DNA from: Anaerolineae bacterium
Lineage (GTDB): Bacteria; Chloroflexota; Anaerolineae; Aggregatilineales; J027
DNA: 64,000 nt
Assembly: GCA_019913005.1 (NCBI GenBank)
Contig: JAIOHL010000249.1
Span: forward strand, 5,615-69,614
Reading direction: 5' to 3'
Shown in pieces: positions 23,140 to 31,717 of the stretch (positions within the stretch are counted from its first letter, which is position 1; each line of letters starts with the position of its first letter). The translations under genes were made by a program, and so were the position numbers. Under the pieces are notes generated by a model. That model had not been told where the DNA came from and searched no databases. It saw only the letters and a list, made by a program, of their open reading frames with translations.

Positions 23140-23998
23140 CAGCCTCGTCCCTTACCCGGTTTTGTTTGTGCAATGGCAAAATGCCCCGGCTGAGGACGGC
23201 TTCCAACACACCGCCCCCAATTGCCAGCGCCTTATCGGAAATGGTGAAGCAGTGTTCACGGATACCACGCGGGTCTAAATCTCCGACTTTCAAGCCTGCC
23301 CATACCTCGACACTTTCATGAATCAGGCCGCGCAACATACCGGAAAATGGGGCGATAATCGGCTCACCTTCGACGGTGGCGATAATCGTGCCTTCTTCAA
23401 GAGAATCGCCAATCTCGGCGTTTGGTTTGACATGGCCCGCACGCGGCGCACGCAGCACCCTCTGACCGTCTTTACCGCCAATCGTGCCGGGAATACCCGT
23501 ATTGGGAATGGCGCTGCCCTGCGAGATGACCCGACCTAGCGAGTGTCCACGCTGGGTTTCCACAATGGCATGACAATCTGTTCCCACCGTAAAGCCGGGG
23601 CCGAGAGCCAAGACAAATTCGGCATCATCCAGTGTGGTATCAATGTTCCGCTTCGCCACCCGTGCATCAATCACGACCTGCGTGTTGATATTGCGCCATG
23701 CCCCATCAGTATCCACGAGAATGGGAATTTCGCCGCCGCGCATTGCCAACCAGACGGCTGAATCAGCTTTGATGACACGTGAGGTAATCCCCTCGACGTG
23801 ATAAACACCCCCCGGCTCAAAAATCGCACTGCCAAACGAAACAGTGCGCCGAACTAGCAAGGGGGTCGGCAAATCCACCATAATCACGGGATAGCCTGCA
23901 TGATATAAGCGAAAAGCGACCCCTGAACCGAGGTCGCCTGCGCCGCGAATGAGGACGATAGGCAGTGGGTCAGACGATGGCACCGAGTCCATGCTCAC
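23126..23998 (-). CDS. yqeB: selenium-dependent molybdenum hydroxylase system protein, YqeB family
   Basis: VLIRGAGDLGSGVAFRLYHAGYPVIMVDLPTPLLVRRTVSF. Overlaps both neighbouring genes (14 nt and 29 nt). Confidence 0.78.
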   Translation of the reverse strand: MSMDSVPSSDPLPIVLIRGAGDLGSGVAFRLYHAGYPVIMVDLPTPLLVRRTVSFGSAIFEPGGVYHVEGITSRVIKADSAVWLAMRGGEIPILVDTDGAWRNINTQVVIDARVAKRNIDTTLDDAEFVLALGPGFTVGTDCHAIVETQRGHSLGRVISQGSAIPNTGIPGTIGGKDGQRVLRAPRAGHVKPNAEIGDSLEEGTIIATVEGEPIIAPFSGMLRGLIHESVEVWAGLKVGDLDPRGIREHCFTISDKALAIGGGVLEAVLSRGILPLHKQNRVRDEADAFT

Positions 23999-26201
23999 GT
24001 AATCCTTCCACTATCCGGTCTGGGATGAAGGGCAGATGGTCGAACCAAATGCCTGTGGCGTCATGAATGGCGGCGGCAATGGCCGGGGCAAGGGGGATAA
24101 AAGGCATTTCAGCCATACCCCGCGCACCCCAAGGGCCAATCGGCACGGGATTTTCGAGCAAAACGGATTTGACTTCTAGTGGAATGTCATAGACCGTCGG
24201 AATGAGGTAGGTGGATAGGAAGGGATTGAGAACACGCCCTTCTTTGCTAATCAAGTGCTCCATAATAGCGTAGCCTTGTGCTTGAACTACCGCGCCTTCG
24301 ACCTGCCCTTCGACCAGCATCCGATTGAGTACCTTGCCAACATCATTGGCACAGGTGACACGCATCAGATTGACCATGCCCGTTTCCAAGTCCACCTCAA
24401 CTTCAGCGACCTCGGCGACATACCCATAGGCAAAATTGGGCGTGCCATAGCCTGTTTCTTTGTCGAGCGTCGTGGTGGCGGGGGGACGATATTGATAGGT
24501 GGCAATAGCAGGCCGTTCTTCATCCAGCCACTTTTTGAGGGCCAGTTCCGCCGCGCCCCGAATGGCATTACCTGTCATAAAGGTCATACGCGAGGCCGAT
24601 GAACTGCCGGAAGTTTGGGTTTCGGCGGTGTCGTGCCCAATCAGCCTAACTTTTTCAACCGGAACACCGACTGCCTCGGCTGTCATTTGGACAAAAATCG
24701 TGTGGGCGCCTTGCCCTACATCCGCTCCGGCTGCACGGACAATGACTTCTTCAATTACACCCGTCCCGCGTAGTTCAATGGTGGCCCAATTTTGTTCGGG
24801 GAAGCCAAAACTATAGCCGATATTTTTGAACCCACAGGCAAACCCAATGCCGCGCCGTTTATAGCTTTCACGCGGCTGCTGGGTGACGGATTTTTGCCAA
24901 CCCTGCCCGTTTTGTGTCCAAGCACCACTTTCGATAGCCCCCGCTTCAATGGTCTGTTGAATGGTGACACCGGGCGGTGGGGGAGTGCCTGTCGTCATGA
25001 TGCTGCCTTCGTGAATAACATTCCGTAGGCGGAAATCCACCGGGTCGAGGCCGAGCGCTTCCGCTAATTTATTCATCATGCCCTCGGCAGCAAACGCACC
25101 TTGTGGCCCCCCAAACCCACGAAACGCCCCGGTCATGATGTTGTTGGTATAGACGCCATAGGTATCCACCTGCACATAGGGGATTTCATAAGGGCCTGTC
25201 ACCATCAAATGGGCATTACCCATCACCTTATTGGTGGTGTAATTATATGCCCCGGCATCGCCAATCACGGTGGCTTCGGCGGCAACCAACTTGCCATCAC
25301 GGGTTGCGCCCCATTTGGCTCGAATTTTGACCGGGTGGCGTTTGTGATGATAGAGGATAGACTCTTCACGACTCCAAATAATTTTGACGGGGCAACCCAA
25401 TTTCCATGCTGCCAATGCAAGGACAATTTGCACACTCATGTCTTCACGTCCGCCGAATGCGCCGCCAATCGCCGGGTAGATCACTCGTACTTGGTCGGGG
25501 GGCAGATTCAAGGCATGATAAATCTGTTCCTGATCTTCATGCACCCATTGGCCCGCCACCACCACTGTGATCCGGCCCTGCTCATCTATATAACCGAGAC
25601 CCGCTTCGGGTTGCAGATAGGCGTGTTCTTGATACCCGGTGGAGAATTCGCCTTCTAAGATGACATCCGATCTAGCCCAGCCTTCCGACATCTCGCCCTT
25701 GCGGATTTTGTAATGCACAATGACGTTATTGGGTTTATCGTGATGCAGTTGGGGCGCATCAGCTTGCATCGCCTCTTCGGGGTCAAAAACGGTAGGCAGG
25801 TCTTGATATTCAATCTCAATTAACTGGGCAGCAGCAGCGGCATTTTCTTCGGTATCGGCAACGACCACTGCGACCACATCGGCCAGACAACGCACCACAT
25901 CTGCGCCGGGGATGGTGCTGCCGGGGCCACAAATTACAGGCTGGTCTTTCATCACCAAACCATATTCATTAACCGGCACATCGCGGGCCGTAAAAATCCT
26001 GACCACACCCGGATAGGCTTCGGCGCGGTGTGTATCAATCGAAACGACCCGCGCATGAACACGGTCTGAAAATCGCATTTTCATCCATAACTGACCATCC
26101 ATATTAAAGTCACTCGGATAAAGTGTTTGACCCGTCACCTTACCAAAGGCATCAATGCGTTTCATGCTTACGCCGATTGCAGGCGTTTGATTATCCGACA
26201 C
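23970..26201 (-). CDS. xanthine dehydrogenase / aldehyde oxidase family molybdopterin-binding large subunit
   Basis: 743 aa. RIDAFGKVTGQTLY N-terminus, PAIGGAFGGRED, FRGFGGPQG, GQGAHT. Confidence 0.92.
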   Translation of the reverse strand: MSDNQTPAIGVSMKRIDAFGKVTGQTLYPSDFNMDGQLWMKMRFSDRVHARVVSIDTHRAEAYPGVVRIFTARDVPVNEYGLVMKDQPVICGPGSTIPGADVVRCLADVVAVVVADTEENAAAAAQLIEIEYQDLPTVFDPEEAMQADAPQLHHDKPNNVIVHYKIRKGEMSEGWARSDVILEGEFSTGYQEHAYLQPEAGLGYIDEQGRITVVVAGQWVHEDQEQIYHALNLPPDQVRVIYPAIGGAFGGREDMSVQIVLALAAWKLGCPVKIIWSREESILYHHKRHPVKIRAKWGATRDGKLVAAEATVIGDAGAYNYTTNKVMGNAHLMVTGPYEIPYVQVDTYGVYTNNIMTGAFRGFGGPQGAFAAEGMMNKLAEALGLDPVDFRLRNVIHEGSIMTTGTPPPPGVTIQQTIEAGAIESGAWTQNGQGWQKSVTQQPRESYKRRGIGFACGFKNIGYSFGFPEQNWATIELRGTGVIEEVIVRAAGADVGQGAHTIFVQMTAEAVGVPVEKVRLIGHDTAETQTSGSSSASRMTFMTGNAIRGAAELALKKWLDEERPAIATYQYRPPATTTLDKETGYGTPNFAYGYVAEVAEVEVDLETGMVNLMRVTCANDVGKVLNRMLVEGQVEGAVVQAQGYAIMEHLISKEGRVLNPFLSTYLIPTVYDIPLEVKSVLLENPVPIGPWGARGMAEMPFIPLAPAIAAAIHDATGIWFDHLPFIPDRIVEGLREHGLGAIV

Positions 26202-26233: not shown

Positions 26234-26713
26234 CTAACCTTGACCACGTTTCCGCATTTCGCGGTCTTGTATCTCTTTAAGCCGTTTGACCTCTTTGATT
26301 TTTTGCTGGCGAATTTTGTCGCGTTTTTTCTCATATTTACGAATGGCCCTTGGGTCATTGCTGTTCGGGGGTAATACAGCCTCTTCTTTGCGAGTGAAAT
26401 CACCACCGAGGGCGGCGGCAACAATCATAAAGGAGATAGCCAGCAAGACGATGGATAGGAAAACGGCGGCGGCAACATCCACTCGGCTATAACTATTACC
26501 AGCAAATTTGAAGAGTTCGTTCTGTTTTAATTCGGCTTCCAACACCCGCTGGTTAAAATCTTCGTTCTTTTCCTTACCGGTGTCTACGATCAACGGTGCA
26601 GCGAGAAATGAAATCGCTATGACAGAGAGTACCAGTACGAAGGCCAAAACCGGGACAAGCTGGCTTCGCTTTTTTAGTTTTTCTTTTTCGGCTTCACGGC
26701 GGGCGACACTCAT
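26234..26713 (-). CDS. small two-TM protein with Lys/Glu-rich tails, embedded in the Mo-hydroxylase operon
   Basis: Helices LVPVLAFVLVLSVIAISFLAAPLIV and VAAAVFLSIVLLAISFMIVAAAL. Charged tails (AEKEKLKKR; KYEKKRDKIRQQKIKEVKRLKE). 4-nt overlap with the upstream gene. Confidence 0.65.
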   Translation of the reverse strand: MSVARREAEKEKLKKRSQLVPVLAFVLVLSVIAISFLAAPLIVDTGKEKNEDFNQRVLEAELKQNELFKFAGNSYSRVDVAAAVFLSIVLLAISFMIVAAALGGDFTRKEEAVLPPNSNDPRAIRKYEKKRDKIRQQKIKEVKRLKEIQDREMRKRGQG

Positions 26714-28152
26714 GGGCTGACTTGCTCCTTCTGTTGTGCTATTTCGCTTGCAAGTTCAAAAGCATCAATGATTTTATAGTAGCCAGTGCAACGACACAGA
26801 TTACCCGAAATACTTTGGGCAATTTGCTCGTGGGTGGGGTGGGGATGTTCCTCCAATAATTTCGCGCCGGACATCAGAAACCCGGGGGTGCAAAATCCGC
26901 ACTGTACACCACCCGTCTCCATAAAGGCTTGTTGAATCGGGTGTAAAGCAGTCTCTTCAGCTAATCCTTCTACCGTTACGATATCCGCCCCATGTGCGCG
27001 GGGGGCTGGAACCATACACGCCATGACCGCGACGCCATCCAGATAAATGGTACATGCGCCGCATTCGCCTTCGGCACAGCCTTCTTTCGTTCCTGTTAAG
27101 CGAATATCATCGCGCAAAAATCGCAACAGGGTCTTATTGGACGCGCCAGTTACCGTATGTTTTTTGCCATTGACCGTCGTCACAATGGTATCGCTGGCAT
27201 CATCCTCATGGCGGACAGACGCAGGTAGGGAACTATGGTGTGCCTTATAGTTTGTACCCCACAGCATCGTCGGATTTTCAGGCCACTGGGCACGCTCTTG
27301 ATGGTCACGCAGCATTCGCAGGGCACGGGCCGTCAACACCTTGACCATCTCGGTTCGATAGGTAGCGGTGGCGCGGACATCACTAATTGGCTTGGGGGTT
27401 GCCGCCGAACGGTTGGCTGCTTCCACAATCGTGGCATCAGTCAGGGTACACCCTTGTAGATAGGTTTCTGCATCCGGTACGCGGATAATCGTTGGGGCAA
27501 CACTGCCGAGTGTGATCCGTGCATGGGTAATCTGATCCCCGTCAAAACCGAGAATCACCGCGATATTGACGACGGAAATGGCTTGGGCGCGGCGTAAACC
27601 TAATTTAAGGAAGACTCCCCGTTCATTTTCTGCCATCGGCTTGAAGCGAATGGAGGTGAGCAGTTCATCAGGTTGCATGGCGGTTTTGCGCACGCCCTTA
27701 TAAAAATCGGCAAAACTCAGCGTGCGTGTGCCAGCCGTCGAGGTAAGTGTAACCGATCCATCTAAAGCCCACAGCGGGGTAATCGTATCATTGGCAGGGC
27801 TGGCGGTGATAAGATTGCCTGCAACGGTGGCCCGATTACGAATTTGCGGCGCACCGACCTCCCAACAGGCTTGTGCCAATGGAAAGGCCTGCTGCACGAT
27901 CATATCACTGGCGACGACCTGATTATGTGTCACCAATGGGCCAAGCTGAATGGATTGCCCATCGAATGTAATCGTGTCGAGACTGGGCAGACGGGTAATA
28001 TCAATCAACGTCTCAACGTCGGGCCGCTGGTTACGCTCAATCTCGATCAAAATATCGGTTGCGCCAGCGATAATTCGGGCACTTTCACGGTGCTGAGCCA
28101 GCAGTACTAATGCTTCATCCAGATGCGTTACACTAAAATAGTTTTTCCACAT
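26710..28152 (-). CDS. fused FAD-binding (CoxM/XdhB-like) and [2Fe-2S] (CoxS/XdhC-like) subunit of the Mo hydroxylase
   Basis: N-terminal half HLDEALVLLAQH..AGATDILIE. C-terminal half GCAEGECGACT, CGFCTPGF, NLCRCTGY. ATG 28152 (MWKNYF) preferred over TTG 28299. Confidence 0.9.
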   Translation of the reverse strand: MWKNYFSVTHLDEALVLLAQHRESARIIAGATDILIEIERNQRPDVETLIDITRLPSLDTITFDGQSIQLGPLVTHNQVVASDMIVQQAFPLAQACWEVGAPQIRNRATVAGNLITASPANDTITPLWALDGSVTLTSTAGTRTLSFADFYKGVRKTAMQPDELLTSIRFKPMAENERGVFLKLGLRRAQAISVVNIAVILGFDGDQITHARITLGSVAPTIIRVPDAETYLQGCTLTDATIVEAANRSAATPKPISDVRATATYRTEMVKVLTARALRMLRDHQERAQWPENPTMLWGTNYKAHHSSLPASVRHEDDASDTIVTTVNGKKHTVTGASNKTLLRFLRDDIRLTGTKEGCAEGECGACTIYLDGVAVMACMVPAPRAHGADIVTVEGLAEETALHPIQQAFMETGGVQCGFCTPGFLMSGAKLLEEHPHPTHEQIAQSISGNLCRCTGYYKIIDAFELASEIAQQKEQVSP

Positions 28153-28172
28153 GAAATTCCCTACCGTAGAAG

Positions 28173-28230
28173 GTCGCAAATGCGACAAGTACGCTAATGG
28201 TAGCACATCCAGCGACCTGTTGCGACAAAA
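28173..28230. promoter_or_regulatory. TGCGAC-type repeats in the divergent xdh / prsW intergenic region
   Basis: Perfect palindrome GTCGCAAATGCGAC at 28173-28186. AGCGAC at 28211-28216. TTGCGACAAAA at 28220-28230. Confidence 0.35.
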
Positions 28231-28300
28231 TTTATCTGTTTTTACGAGAGGCCGTATTCCATTATAATCAACGGATAAAACCCTATCTTGAAAGCGCAAT

Positions 28301-30115
28301 ATGGATTTTTCAACCCTGATCGCTCATGTAATTGCGATTGCGATACCCGCCCTAACCATCTACCTTTTCTATGCGTTTGACCTCTATGGCACGGGTCGAA
28401 TTAGCACGGTTTTGGTGAGTTTTGGGTGGGGAGCAATTGGGGCTTTTGGCATCGCCAACCTGACCTATCAACTGGTGTTTGCGGGTGTCGAATTTGATAC
28501 CCTAACCACGCGGGTTGCACCCACGCTTGAAGAACTGCTCAAGTCGGCGGTACTAATTTATCTCGTCTACCAACCACGTTTTCGCTACATTGTAGATGGT
28601 ACAATCTATGGAATCGCCGTTGGAATAGGCTTTGCGATGTCGGAAACCATCTTGATTTATCTACCCGATGCGGGTGATGCGGCCCTCTCGACTGCCATCA
28701 GCCGGGTGCTTTCGACCTCTTTAATGCACGCCACCGCCAGCGCAATGGTCGGGATTTTGTTTGGACGTTATCGGCGGGCGACCTCCCAAAATAAGCACAT
28801 TTTCCCTATTGTGGGCATCTTGCTTGCTATTGGGGTTCACACCATTTACAACGCAGGCCTCATCCAAATTGAAGGCTACAGCGATGGGCGATTTTTGCTG
28901 CTATTTGCCATTACGCTGGGTTTTTCGGGCAGTGCCTTCATTGCATTTGTCATGAATCAGGGGTTGAAGGAAGAAAAACGACGCTTTGAACAGACCCTCG
29001 GTTTGGACGTGGGGGTTTCGGCAGGCGAACGCAAGGCCGTTCAGCGTCTCGGTGGAAATGGTATCGAGCAGATTTTGGGCGAGATGAAAGAATTTTTCGG
29101 ACAAGAAAACATCACCCTCATTCGCCGTTTGCTGGTGGTGCAGGCCAATATCGGAATTTTGCAGAATAATCTGAAAAGCCAAGTCAGTGATCGGTTGAAA
29201 CGGGCATGGCAGGAAGAAATCGCCGAATATCAGCGCGAAAATGATGAAATCCGCACTCAATTAGGCGTCTACGTTACTAGCTTTATGCGCCGGGTGTTTC
29301 CGGCTGAAGATCAAGCGCTTTGGGATACGGTGAATGCTGAATTAGCCGATTATGACCCAACACTGGTGCATACCTTTGATATGTTCATGCGCGTTTCCGA
29401 ATTGGCCGAGACTTTTACGGTGGAGCAGTTGTCCGCGATGGCCGAGCGCCTGAGCCATATGGAAATATTTCGGAATGTGTCGCTGACTAATCTGGAAAAT
29501 CTTTGCCGGGCGATTGTGGTTGAAAATTATCCTGATGGCGCGGTTATTTTCGATCAGGGCGCGACGGGCGATTCCATGTATATGATTGAAGAGGGCAATA
29601 TCAATGCCTATGTGACCTCGCACCGGGACGGCGAAGATAAGTTTTTGCGGGCTTTCCGGGCCGGAGATGTGGTGGGCGAATTTTCCTTACTGGATGGGCA
29701 GCCCCGTTCGGCACGTGCGCTCGCGGTGGGGGGGGTCAAAGTTTTGGTGTTAAAGCGGCAGGCGTTTATGATGTTTATGCAAAGCCGTCCTCAGGTCGTC
29801 CTCGCTATGCTGCAATATCTGGCTGAAAAACTGCGCTACACCACCGTGTCGGTTGAGGCCAGCACCAGTTGGGCCACCCGCATCGCACAGGGGCAGTATG
29901 ATGAACCCTATGTCTTTAATCCACCCACGTCTACCATTGCTATTCCCGATGAACCTCCCCCCGCCTTAGAACCGCATGAACTTTCGGAAGACACCCCTGA
30001 AATTATCGGTACGTTATTGCTACGAGCAGCGGGTGTTCTCAAAGAACGGGAACGTCTCTTACGGAAACGCATTAGTGATACATGGAAGCGTGTCACCATC
30101 ACCGAGAAATCATGA
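28301..30115 (+). CDS. PrsW-family intramembrane protease fused to a cyclic-nucleotide-binding (CAP_ED) domain
   Basis: N-terminal ~215 aa are polytopic with EELLK (EExxK), FAMSE, SLMHAT and HTIYN motifs as in PrsW. The C-terminus carries FRNVSL...GAVIFDQGATGDSMYMIEEG...GEFSLLDGQPRSARALA (phosphate-binding cassette with RSA). Confidence 0.8.
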   Translation: MDFSTLIAHVIAIAIPALTIYLFYAFDLYGTGRISTVLVSFGWGAIGAFGIANLTYQLVFAGVEFDTLTTRVAPTLEELLKSAVLIYLVYQPRFRYIVDGTIYGIAVGIGFAMSETILIYLPDAGDAALSTAISRVLSTSLMHATASAMVGILFGRYRRATSQNKHIFPIVGILLAIGVHTIYNAGLIQIEGYSDGRFLLLFAITLGFSGSAFIAFVMNQGLKEEKRRFEQTLGLDVGVSAGERKAVQRLGGNGIEQILGEMKEFFGQENITLIRRLLVVQANIGILQNNLKSQVSDRLKRAWQEEIAEYQRENDEIRTQLGVYVTSFMRRVFPAEDQALWDTVNAELADYDPTLVHTFDMFMRVSELAETFTVEQLSAMAERLSHMEIFRNVSLTNLENLCRAIVVENYPDGAVIFDQGATGDSMYMIEEGNINAYVTSHRDGEDKFLRAFRAGDVVGEFSLLDGQPRSARALAVGGVKVLVLKRQAFMMFMQSRPQVVLAMLQYLAEKLRYTTVSVEASTSWATRIAQGQYDEPYVFNPPTSTIAIPDEPPPALEPHELSEDTPEIIGTLLLRAAGVLKERERLLRKRISDTWKRVTITEKS

Positions 30116-30163
30116 ATCTCCGTATTTTTGATCTAAACTGGACAGCACAGCACAATAGAGAGA

Positions 30164-30523
30164 TCAGGGTTTCTTAAGGTTTTCGAATTCCCAATGCCCC
30201 AACTCGCCAACCTTAAGGCCTACTTCATGCCATGTGTCGGCATCGCAGCGCCGCAAAAAACGTTCAATCTTGCCCATAATGCGCTTATAGTCATATTCAA
30301 AAACAATGAGATGATGTCGTCCAACTATGACATCATCTTTTGGATATTGATCCATCAACCATTGTGGGGTGCAGATAGTTAGGCCAAAAATCTCTTCCCC
30401 TATGCTGCCTTTTGGCCCGATTCCTAGTTCAAGATAGAAACAGAAGTTATCAGGTGGGTCAGGATAATAGGCCTCTAAATCGGGTATATCTGCACAATGG
30501 ATGCTTTTGATAACGGCTCTCAT
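30164..30523 (-). CDS. Imm8-like polymorphic-toxin immunity protein (orphan)
   Basis: IKSIHCADIPDLEAYYPDPPDNFCFYLELGIGPKG...EIFGLTICTPQWL...GRHHLIVFEYDY...GHWEFEN matches my memory of the Imm8 (PF15586) pattern. Hand-counted GC is about 37-43%. The ATG abuts the stop of the upstream gene (TAAATG on the coding strand). Confidence 0.6.
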   Translation of the reverse strand: MRAVIKSIHCADIPDLEAYYPDPPDNFCFYLELGIGPKGSIGEEIFGLTICTPQWLMDQYPKDDVIVGRHHLIVFEYDYKRIMGKIERFLRRCDADTWHEVGLKVGELGHWEFENLKKP

Positions 30524-31717
30524 TTAGACCTTCACAATAATTGGCTCAGTTTGAGGTTTGGCAAGCCATTCCATGCCCTTTTCAGTCACAATCACGTCTT
30601 CTTCCAGCGCTACCAGCCCATAGTTAGGCACTTGAACACCAAGTTCGAGGGTATAGGCATTGCCGACTTCGAGCAGGCCCATTGGACTCTGCCCATATTT
30701 TTCCCACATCGGCCCTAACAAGGTTGAGCCATCATGCACAGTGCGGCCAATTTGATGTCCAGTGGCGTGTAAAAATTCGGGATAGCCGTTCCGGATGATA
30801 TGGTGACGGGCGGCGGTGTCCACTGCGTTGCCTGTTACCCCCGGTTGCATGACATCGGCGGCGGCTTGAATCGCGCCACTGACGACCTTAAACCCGTTCA
30901 AAATCGGTTGGGGGATGCTGGTTTCGTTAGCAGGCTGCAAATACCACACGCGCTGCATATCGGAAACGTAATCCTCAAAATAGACCCCCAAATCCACATG
31001 AACCAACTGTCCGACCTGCGAGATATATTTTTCCGATGGGGCCGCATGTCCAATCGGTGAATCCGGGCCACAGTTGACAATCGGGCAATATTCGGGTTCC
31101 CACGCCGGAGTAAGACCGCGCTTGCTCATTTCGGCATGAATAAAGGCGGCAATTTCCCTTTCATGCAGACCGGGGCGGAGATAGCCGGTGATCTGGTCAA
31201 TAATTTCTTCGGTGAGTTTGACGGCTTGGCGAATGCGGGCGATTTCGGTGGCAGATTTGCGACCTCGCAGCGAATTCAAAATGCTCTCGGCGGAGATCAA
31301 TTCATAGGGTGTGCCTTGTAGATAACGCTTCAAAATGAGATACATCCCGTGCGAAAGGCCATCGGCGGCAGAATCGTTTTCGGAATAATTAAGGGCGATC
31401 TGGCGGGGATTTAGCCGTTTCAAAATCCGCTGCAATTCGGGCTGGATGCTCTGGTCATAGCCAATGATTTCGGTAAACCCCCCAATGCGTTCAACATTTT
31501 CCGCATCATAGCGCCCCACGATGGCGATTTTTTCGCCGCTGCGGATAATAATAAAGACCGATTGCCACGTCAAATTCATGCCCACTATAAGGCCAAGTGC
31601 CGGGTCAGCATTATGGGATGTTTCACGTACAAAGGTCATCCAAGCATCAATTTGTTTTTCTTGGAGAATTTCAACTGCCTGATTTAATTTTTCAAGCTGA
31701 ATGCTAAAATGGGTCAT
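30524..31717 (-). CDS. M24 family Xaa-Pro aminopeptidase/dipeptidase
   Basis: VHVDLGVYFEDYVSDMQR, HATGHQIGRTVHDG, TLELGV, LEEDVIVT (metal ligands). ATG 31717 preferred; an alternative ATG lies at 31765. Confidence 0.88.
   Translation of the reverse strand: MTHFSIQLEKLNQAVEILQEKQIDAWMTFVRETSHNADPALGLIVGMNLTWQSVFIIIRSGEKIAIVGRYDAENVERIGGFTEIIGYDQSIQPELQRILKRLNPRQIALNYSENDSAADGLSHGMYLILKRYLQGTPYELISAESILNSLRGRKSATEIARIRQAVKLTEEIIDQITGYLRPGLHEREIAAFIHAEMSKRGLTPAWEPEYCPIVNCGPDSPIGHAAPSEKYISQVGQLVHVDLGVYFEDYVSDMQRVWYLQPANETSIPQPILNGFKVVSGAIQAAADVMQPGVTGNAVDTAARHHIIRNGYPEFLHATGHQIGRTVHDGSTLLGPMWEKYGQSPMGLLEVGNAYTLELGVQVPNYGLVALEEDVIVTEKGMEWLAKPQTEPIIVKV

Follow-up and report, generated by a model that had tools for sequence, protein, structure and literature searches.

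The window analysed here, a stretch of 64,000 nucleotides from an Anaerolineae bacterium (contig JAIOHL010000249.1), carries a complete gene, which we call PrsW-CNB, whose product combines a PrsW-type intramembrane protease with a cyclic-nucleotide-binding (CNB) domain. Sequence comparisons support its description as a PrsW-type signalling protease joined to a CRP-like cAMP sensor through an undescribed domain that would act as transducer. We consider it fairly probable that the protein is an intact, selected and modular signalling protease which makes a site-1-type cut under the control of cAMP. This reading is based on the architecture of the protein, the conservation of its residues, the purifying selection acting on its gene and the gene linkage found in relatives, and from these we infer that the protein would bind cAMP and be gated by it, which substrate might be cut and at which position. 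The gene and the parts of its product, with positions in amino acids (aa), are the following:

28301..30115, + strand: PrsW-CNB gene, complete, with an ATG start, 604 aa and a stop; encodes protease, helical domain, CNB domain and tail.
28301..28960, + strand: PrsW-type intramembrane protease domain with seven transmembrane (TM) helices, aa 1-220; N-terminus predicted outside, C-terminus predicted cytoplasmic.
28529..28543, + strand: motif 1, EELLK, E77-E78-x-x-K81 (aa 77-81); E77 and E78 invariant, K81 at least 90% conserved.
28631..28645, + strand: motif 2, FAMSE, F111-x-x-x-E115 (aa 111-115); F111 and E115 invariant.
28724..28735, + strand: motif 3, MHAT, with H143 (aa 142-145); H143 invariant.
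28838..28852, + strand: motif 4, HTIYN, H180-x-x-x-N184 (aa 180-184); H180 and N184 invariant.
28961..29464, + strand: cytoplasmic helical domain, aa 221-388; conserved, no Pfam family.
29465..29890, + strand: CRP/PKA-type CNB domain with a long C-helix, aa 389-530.
29675..29725, + strand: phosphate-binding cassette GEFSLLDGQPRSARALA, aa 459-475; G459, R469, S470 and A471 invariant.
29840..29845, + strand: T514-T515 of the C-helix, equivalent to CRP T127/S128 (BLASTP with E. coli CRP).
29891..30112, + strand: C-terminal tail, aa 531-604; in the AlphaFold2 model, a Pro-rich stretch that is disordered and then an amphipathic helix, 565-603.

An earlier note on this DNA had proposed the fusion of PrsW with a CNB domain in this open reading frame (ORF). 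This was borne out, since both PF13367 (PrsW-protease, aa 35-194, 90.5 bits versus a gathering score of 23.5, E=1.4e-25) and PF00027 (cNMP_binding, aa 408-495, 69.6 bits versus a threshold of 27.5, E=2.3e-19) matched above their curated thresholds, and the motifs that it had quoted (EELLK, FAMSE, MHAT, HTIYN and GEFSLLDGQPRSARALA) were all found in the ORF. Homologues of the protein measure 568-620 aa, with 97-100% length coverage. The AlphaFold2 model that the note had recommended, computed with the family alignment as input, reached a mean predicted local distance difference test (pLDDT) score of 82.8 and a predicted template modelling (pTM) score of 0.50, and displayed a three-part architecture of seven TM helices, an all-helical region at residues 241-385 and a CNB beta-barrel.

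By its hidden Markov model score, its motifs and its topology, the window protein is a member of the PrsW family (PF13367, MEROPS M82). In the model, the TM helices span residues 3-25, 34-58, 65-89, 97-123, 125-159, 163-194 and 199-234, and the loop charges obey the positive-inside rule, which predicts an N-terminus outside and a C-terminus inside the cell. The residues E77, E78, F111, E115, H143, H180 and N184 were invariant in an alignment of 91 family sequences and in 71 genomic loci. Thus, the two findings named beforehand as fatal to the proposal, a failure of the N-terminal part to match the PrsW model and a loss of the catalytic Glu or His residues, were not seen in the domain search or among the 91 homologues and 71 loci. 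According to PMC12943098, the corresponding motifs of B. subtilis PrsW are E75E76xxK79, F110xxxE114, H138 and H175xxxD/N179, and the mutations E75A/E76A and H175A affect its function. With the predicted topology, E77/E78, E115 and H180/N184 would lie in the outer half of the membrane, which we infer from the model to be where a site-1-type cut would be made.

The region between protease and sensor had been described in the earlier note as a helical linker of about 170 aa. It is helical in the AlphaFold2 model, but it is not a passive linker: it is the segment under the strongest constraint, with dN/dS values (nonsynonymous to synonymous substitution rates) against orthologues of 0.013-0.039, the lowest of all segments, and its first ~130 residues are shared with PrsW proteins that have no CNB domain. 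Residues 221-388, into which TM7 continues, are a domain in their own right. Among the residues invariant in the 91-sequence alignment are K226, F229, E243, G251, Q281, N283, G285 and L287, as well as N290, R298, W303, R318, D352, F359, D360 and F362, and in the full-length model residues 260-340 have a pLDDT of about 85-94. No Pfam family matched this domain. A word-indexed search with this region alone gave only 2 fragments and was replaced by an exhaustive profile search of 1.84 billion representatives, in which 152 proteins were recovered. Many of these are proteins of about 375 aa that match the first ~130 positions of the domain at their own residues ~215-345 and that, by Pfam, consist of PrsW plus the helical domain and lack a CNB domain; a further variant of about 675 aa has PrsW, helical domain, CNB domain and receiver. 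From these comparisons, the helical module is the constant cytoplasmic part of a PrsW subfamily in which the attached sensor varies (none, CNB, or CNB plus receiver), and its occurrence with PrsW alone, with PrsW and CNB, and with PrsW, CNB and receiver fits a transducer between variable sensors and the protease. The receiver variant was seen at L082 (6001-8028) and L083, as a protein of 675 aa with a C-terminal response-regulator receiver; its gene is preceded by those for a weakly FecR-like/SH3 protein, a CHASE2 histidine kinase and an unannotated 321-aa protein. The architecture of this variant suggests a dual input, by cyclic nucleotide and by phosphorylation.

When the protein was searched against PDB sequences, the CNB part alone matched, to PKA regulatory subunits, PKG and CRP/GlxR, and with Foldseek the CNB domain matched GlxR, M. 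tuberculosis CRP and PKA-R (E~1e-9, probability 1.0). BLASTP to E. coli CRP aligned G71, E72, R82, S83 and A84 with G459, E460, R469, S470 and A471. CRP T127 and S128, to which T514 and T515 correspond, make the contacts to adenine N6 on the C-helix of the dimer; T514 is invariant and T515 at least 90% conserved in the 91-sequence alignment. G459, R469, S470 and A471 are invariant in the 71 loci as well. All cAMP contacts of CRP are identical or conservatively replaced in the window protein, so that both this alignment and the conservation in the family confirm the intact phosphate-binding cassette noticed before. At E460 (29678-29680), the equivalent of CRP E72, most clades linked to sigma factor and cyclase, described below, have Asp, and the window clade and those closest to it retain Glu; the change might alter the affinity or specificity for the nucleotide. 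Neither Pfam nor NCBIfam detected a helix-turn-helix (HTH) DNA-binding domain, and the CRP-family models of NCBIfam matched the CNB part only, far under their cut-offs. Constraint is weakest in the tail (dN/dS 0.09-0.2), a counterpart of which also occurs in the free-standing CNB paralogue encoded next to many relatives.

A search of 5.8 billion proteins gave 229 relatives, and the 120 best listed all carry both PF13367 and PF00027, while a scan of one genome per species gave 272 relatives. The survey proposed in the earlier note thus shows that the fusion recurs widely: no fewer than 120 protein clusters and 272 species genomes have it. The retrieved loci belong nearly all to the Chloroflexota, class Anaerolineae (Aggregatilineales, Anaerolineaceae, Ardenticatenia, Phototrophicaceae). 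Contigs labelled Oceanobacillus sp. or Pleurocapsa (L036, L070, L071), among them a scaffold of 1.02 Mb, carry the gene cluster typical of Anaerolineae, with cyclase, sigma factor, the small protein c3 and PrsW-CNB; these are likely mis-binned or mislabelled metagenome-assembled genomes (MAGs), and horizontal transfer is less likely. The window protein is 95-96% identical to that of three MAGs, CFX5, CFX10 and DTUCFX7, and compared with six orthologues the dN/dS of the whole gene is 0.04-0.07. Taken together, these data refute the idea that PrsW-CNB is an artefact of assembly or gene calling or a decaying pseudo-enzyme. The sole weak point in its favour is that the window copy stands without partner genes. 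The same architecture is found in at least 120 clusters from NCBI, ENA, JGI and Logan, on contigs of up to 1.9 Mb, and such recurrence in many independent assemblies, with contigs of more than 1 Mb, excludes the assembly artefact that had been named as a possible objection. Furthermore, six orthologous loci share the synteny of the window, and the intact catalytic and ligand-binding residues, together with the low dN/dS, argue against a pseudo-enzyme.

In order to describe the genetic context, ORFs were called and clustered in 79 loci and the recurrent clusters annotated; partners were counted by tblastn among 71 loci. In clades whose proteins are 30-50% identical to the window protein, the gene belongs to a sigma-linked context. 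Its order begins with a ParA-like ATPase, a Cys-rich protein of 60-72 aa (c30) and a protein of ~140 aa with weak winged-helix similarity (c5), continues with a cyclase/STAND protein of ~1030 aa, an extracytoplasmic function (ECF) sigma factor, c3 (~146 aa) and PrsW-CNB, and ends with a free-standing CNB protein of ~200 aa and c17 (~209 aa, single TM). The ECF sigma factor precedes PrsW-CNB in 31 of the 71 loci. c3 was found in 29/71, between the genes for sigma factor and protease and never without the sigma factor, and the cyclase in 21/71, in 20 of these 21 together with the sigma factor. The gaps between sigma factor and c3 are mostly of 0-12 bp. The gene for the CNB-only protein lies just downstream of PrsW-CNB in most loci, and its start often overlaps the stop of PrsW-CNB by 4 bp; the protein is a paralogue of the entire C-terminal half of PrsW-CNB, with the RYTT helix and the tail included.

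Protein c3 begins with a conserved soluble domain of ~75 aa, which is followed by two TM helices and a basic tail; the short loop that joins the helices carries a conserved GTA-G motif. All homologues of c3, which come from the same taxa, are labelled "hypothetical protein". As far as gene order and predicted topology go, its position and membrane arrangement are those of a membrane anti-sigma factor. The linked cyclase has two cyclase-homology domains and an AAA_16/STAND (NB-ARC-like) NTPase domain. A regular-expression search for the cyclase specificity residues (K/D) gave no match in this divergent protein, and similarity to PDB entries was used instead; the best matches were P. aeruginosa CyaB and, over both catalytic domains, human ADCY10. 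This similarity places the protein among the adenylate cyclases of the soluble type, with tandem catalytic domains. A bicarbonate-activated cyclase of this kind is known in Chloroflexus (Kobayashi et al., cited in PMC11006738).

A second context was found in the clade nearest to the window protein (52-58% identity), with the order HtrA, DnaJ, DUF2207, c23, PrsW-CNB, CNB-only protein, a secreted protein of ~460 aa and PP2C. Protein c23 (170 aa) carries two TM helices at its N-terminus, then a region resembling a winged helix, and ends in a zinc ribbon (CPNCG...CRFCG). Its gene lies immediately upstream of PrsW-CNB in 13 of the 71 loci (e.g. L001 7457-7972); c23 is another small membrane-anchored candidate substrate or regulator, with a domain order opposite to that of c3. 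The triad of ParA/MinD-like ATPase, c30 and c5 accompanies this PrsW subfamily with or without a CNB domain: it was seen in L002, L038, L041, L050, L058, L068, L080 and others, and a CNB-less PrsW relative also has it, downstream. In the triad, c30 shows the Cys pattern CxxC...CRFCG...CGxCRPQ and c5 measures ~120-150 aa with weak winged-helix similarity.

The window copy stands apart from these arrangements. When every partner cluster was searched by tblastn against the full 64-kb window, only the PrsW-CNB gene itself was matched. The earlier note had stated that no sigma/anti-sigma pair is adjacent, which holds for the window locus over its 64 kb but not for the family, where a sigma factor is linked in 31 of the 71 loci. 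The clade of the window protein (the window, L003-L008 and L010) has a context of Mo-hydroxylase, M24 and PIG-L genes with no partners; the contig of L004 is too short for its context to be seen. A second PrsW-CNB paralogue, with ~49% identity, was found in CFX5, CFX10, DTUCFX7, NC_groundwater_1614 and JTS-AC430, on contigs (L028-L031, L063) that are other contigs of the same MAGs as L005-L008 and L010, and this paralogue is preceded by an ECF sigma factor, c3 and an unannotated ORF of 350 aa. Near it there are also Barstar-like, Uma2 and PIN genes and a gene for a giant PD40 beta-propeller protein of ~2500-3000 aa. Hence the window copy is an orphan paralogue that keeps every functional residue and has either lost its linked partners or never had them. 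Its substrate would be encoded elsewhere, possibly at or near the sigma locus of the second paralogue in the same genome, and it may be the substrate of that paralogue or a different one.

The context of sigma factor, 2-TM protein and adenylate cyclase in relatives strengthens the reading of a proteolysis gated by cyclic nucleotides. We propose the following mechanism. cAMP would bind to the CNB domain, which probably dimerises in a CRP-like manner via its C-helix; where the CNB-only paralogue is encoded downstream, the dimer may be formed with that protein. The conformational change would reach the protease core by way of the helical domain and TM7, a coupling that can be likened to the C-linker which joins the CNB domain and the pore in CNG/HCN channels. 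Once activated, the core would cleave a small regulator anchored in the membrane, by a site-1-type cut close to the membrane's outer face. In relatives, this regulator is likely to be c3, the 2-TM protein of ~146 aa encoded together with the ECF sigma factor immediately upstream, and the source of cAMP is probably the adjacent tandem-domain cyclase of the soluble type, fused to a STAND NTPase. In the sigma-linked clades, the cut would free the ECF sigma factor. A more far-reaching version, that the family constitutes the protease step of a complete pathway from cyclase to cAMP, PrsW-CNB, c3 and ECF sigma factor, is put forward tentatively, as a possibility to which we give somewhat less than even weight. 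There, cAMP would bind both PrsW-CNB and its co-translated CNB-only partner, c3 would be a new type of 2-TM anti-sigma factor cut possibly in its short extracytoplasmic GTA-G loop, and the ParA-like ATPase, the Cys-rich protein of 60-72 aa and the winged-helix-like protein would be further conserved components.

Several observations weigh against a cAMP-gated signalling protease of this type. The NCBIfam equivalog model for PrsW, NF033739, gave 59.1 bits against a cut-off of 225 bits, and therefore the window protein is not an orthologue or equivalog of the characterised B. subtilis PrsW. About 40 of the 71 loci have a context without a sigma factor; c3 has no Pfam match and no similarity found to known anti-sigma domains; and none of the sigma factor, c3, cyclase, CNB-only protein and ParA-like triad occurs in the 64-kb window. 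A long-range coupling must be assumed, because the catalytic residues lie near the outer leaflet and the sensor in the cytoplasm, and the geometry of the domains to one another is uncertain in the model, as its pTM shows. When modelled in isolation, the helical domain reached a pLDDT of 59, too poor for a fold search, which suggests that packing contacts with the other parts of the protein stabilise this domain. Finally, for every member of the family, proteolysis, cAMP binding and gating are predictions from sequence.

Some of these observations would also suit a protease that is constitutive or gated in another way, in which the CNB domain is a cAMP-dependent docking or localisation module instead of an allosteric switch, for example by binding the free-standing CNB partner or by recruiting the substrate. 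The paralogue of the C-terminal half encoded immediately downstream in most loci, often with the 4-bp overlap, suggests such a hetero-oligomer, and the uncertain inter-domain geometry (pTM 0.50) as well as the CNB-less relatives with the same helical domain are compatible with it. However, no segment is under stronger constraint than the helical domain that connects TM7 with the CNB domain, a finding that fits signal transmission better than a tether, and the swapping of sensors (none, CNB, CNB plus receiver) on one core is typical of allosteric input modules, so that we regard docking as rather unlikely. The natural occurrence of the soluble C-terminal half as a separate gene could likewise point to autoprocessing, in which the PrsW domain would cut its own chain and free the helical-CNB module as a soluble cAMP receptor. 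A parallel exists in the autoproteolysis proposed for PrsW-toxin fusions by Zhang et al. 2012 (PMC3482391), and the segment after TM7, at residues 235-247, is of low confidence and probably flexible in the AlphaFold2 model. Nevertheless, the same paper sets the fusions with signalling domains apart from those with toxins by sequence and architecture, the region that might be cut is on the cytoplasmic side while the catalytic residues are near the outer leaflet, and the freed fragment would have no recognisable output domain (no HTH), which makes this explanation improbable.

We also considered an anti-phage abortive-infection effector like Pycsar PycTM, where a STAND-cyclase would sense infection and produce a cyclic nucleotide, upon which a membrane protein with a CNB domain would damage the cell. 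In agreement with it, the PADLOC models for Pycsar/TIR effectors matched the CNB domain (E=1e-7 to 3e-9), the linked cyclase bears a STAND-type NTPase (AAA_16/NB-ARC-like), and some copies have toxin or immunity genes in their vicinity (Imm8 for the window copy; Barstar, PIN and Uma2 at L028). The PADLOC matches are, however, confined to the generic CNB domain and weaker than those to PKA and CRP, the linked cyclase is of the soluble adenylate cyclase type and not PycC-like, and there is no cyclase in the 64 kb of the window. In addition, the association with an ECF sigma factor and a membrane protein is conserved, as is typical for signalling systems, and vertical conservation within one class, strong purifying selection and two paralogues per genome speak in the same sense. 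A Pycsar-like function is thus very improbable, and a defence effector was rejected as the main explanation, PADLOC having given generic CNB matches only. A signalling protease gated by cAMP remains the reading that we favour.

The protein can be compared with several known systems. B. subtilis PrsW has ~218 aa and no cytoplasmic sensor domain. Like it, the window protein has PF13367, the four catalytic motifs at nearly equal positions, a 7-TM core and an N-terminus outside, and many members of the PrsW-CNB family adjoin an ECF sigma factor and a small membrane protein. In contrast to it, the window protein carries three additional parts, namely the helical domain of ~170 aa, the CNB domain and the tail; moreover, the linked c3 lacks detectable similarity to known anti-sigma domains such as that of RsiW, and no sigma or anti-sigma gene adjoins the window copy. 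For PrsW, as an Rce1/CPBP (type II CAAX)-like protease, a mechanism based on Glu and His is expected. The TM domain of the window protein has no sequence-detectable relative in the PDB (0 matches of its profile at E<=10). According to PMC3482391, the PrsW motifs are distantly related to those of the CPBP and APH-1 families.

Fusions of PrsW with signalling domains have been noted before. Zhang et al. 2012 (PMC3482391) mention PrsW fused to PilZ, "cyclic nucleotide binding domains", FHA and Zn-ribbon as likely "signaling peptidases", and Leptospira LIC_20173 was described in 2026, in a computational study (PMC12943098), as a PrsW predicted to be active and fused to a c-di-GMP-binding PilZ domain. 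These proteins share with PrsW-CNB a PrsW core and a second-messenger receptor, and LIC_20173 differs in its two extra TM helices and in having PilZ instead of CNB. Both mentions are computational, and the passages concerned do not describe the helical domain, the linkage to cyclase, sigma factor and c3, the CNB-only partner or the distribution in Anaerolineae. The earlier note had called the fusion not known to be characterised. This holds in so far as we found no paper that characterises it, but the architecture itself is noted in one sentence of 2012 (PMC3482391) and in JGI annotations, which already label both halves of PrsW-CNB. Searches of the literature for PrsW, intramembrane proteases or regulated intramembrane proteolysis in combination with cyclic nucleotides or cAMP gave no relevant paper, and we found none on the biochemistry of PrsW-CNB, on the helical domain or on the operon, or describing a cAMP-controlled release of sigma factors via proteolysis.

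With the receptors CRP/GlxR, the window protein shares the CNB fold, with a TM-score of up to 0.85 (normalised to target length) versus the bacterial CNB-only structure 2pqq. It differs from them in lacking an HTH domain, in being tethered to a membrane protease and in the Pro-rich stretch and amphipathic helix that follow the C-helix. As in CNG/HCN/SthK and plant AKT/GORK channels, a membrane domain is followed by a cytoplasmic helical connector and a C-terminal CNB domain, and by analogy these channels offer a plausible picture of how a ligand signal could reach an active centre embedded in the membrane. Unlike them, the window protein would be a protease and not a pore, and homology is shown for the CNB domain only, so that this is a resemblance and not a family membership. 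In agreement with this, Foldseek matches of the full-length model to the PDB were dominated by the CNB domain, and whole-length alignments to CNG/AKT channels, at ~23 A root-mean-square deviation, reflect the order of parts only. Compared with the Pycsar effector, both an effector-specific match and an adjacent pyrimidine cyclase are lacking in the 64-kb window.

Regarding the surroundings of the gene in the window, its divergence from a Mo-hydroxylase operon, as stated before, was confirmed by Pfam annotation of the upstream genes. The features concerned are:

26713-28152, - strand: fused Mo-hydroxylase subunit, FAD_binding_5/CO_deh_flav_C/Fer2/Fer2_2 (Pfam), 480 aa.
23973-26201, divergent from PrsW-CNB: Mo-hydroxylase Ald_Xan_dh_C/MoCoBD subunit (Pfam).
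28241..28268, + strand: promoter-like site TTTACG-16 nt-TATAAT, with 10/12 consensus matches, 33 nt before the ATG of PrsW-CNB in a 148-bp intergenic region.

The 480-aa protein unites CoxM-like FAD-binding and CoxS-like 2Fe-2S subunits in one chain. Its mechanical ORF runs 49 codons further, to a TTG at 28299; the true start is probably the ATG at 28152, which leaves the 148-bp divergent intergenic region before PrsW-CNB. The promoter-like and terminator sites of the region were not more numerous than in shuffled controls and are therefore weak evidence, and an Rfam scan of 27800-30700 gave one chance-level miRNA match only. Between the two Mo-hydroxylase subunit genes there is an ORF of 159 aa (26234-26713, - strand) without a Pfam match, which overlaps its upstream gene by 4 nt; by eye, two stretches of its sequence are hydrophobic and its termini, rich in Lys/Glu, are highly charged. 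It corresponds to cluster c37 and is kept in all of the clade-A loci that cover this region (7/7); a small membrane protein within a Mo-hydroxylase operon is unusual. Downstream of PrsW-CNB lie genes for an M24 peptidase, a PIG-L deacetylase and an ABC transporter. Directly downstream, on the opposite strand (30164-30523, -), is a gene for an Imm8 immunity protein of the polymorphic-toxin type (PF15586, E=2.7e-35), an orphan next to which no toxin gene was seen. In close relatives its place varies: L003 has a tocopherol-cyclase-like gene, L007 nothing, and L005 and L008 other small ORFs.

The family-level operon is the more interesting result, since the orphan copy of the window gives little handle on its own substrate. 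The linkage of cyclase, ECF sigma factor, 2-TM protein, PrsW-CNB and CNB-only protein suggests that cAMP could control the release of a sigma factor by proteolysis, and the helical domain is a candidate for a general transducer in a PrsW subfamily that accepts different sensors. The B. subtilis PrsW is considered to sense the inducing signal for site-1 cleavage itself (PMC4183432). A PrsW protein with a fused domain for a defined ligand therefore offers a tractable model. If the complete pathway outlined above is true, no earlier example would exist of cAMP acting as the direct switch of regulated intramembrane proteolysis, and the PrsW class would gain a defined ligand.

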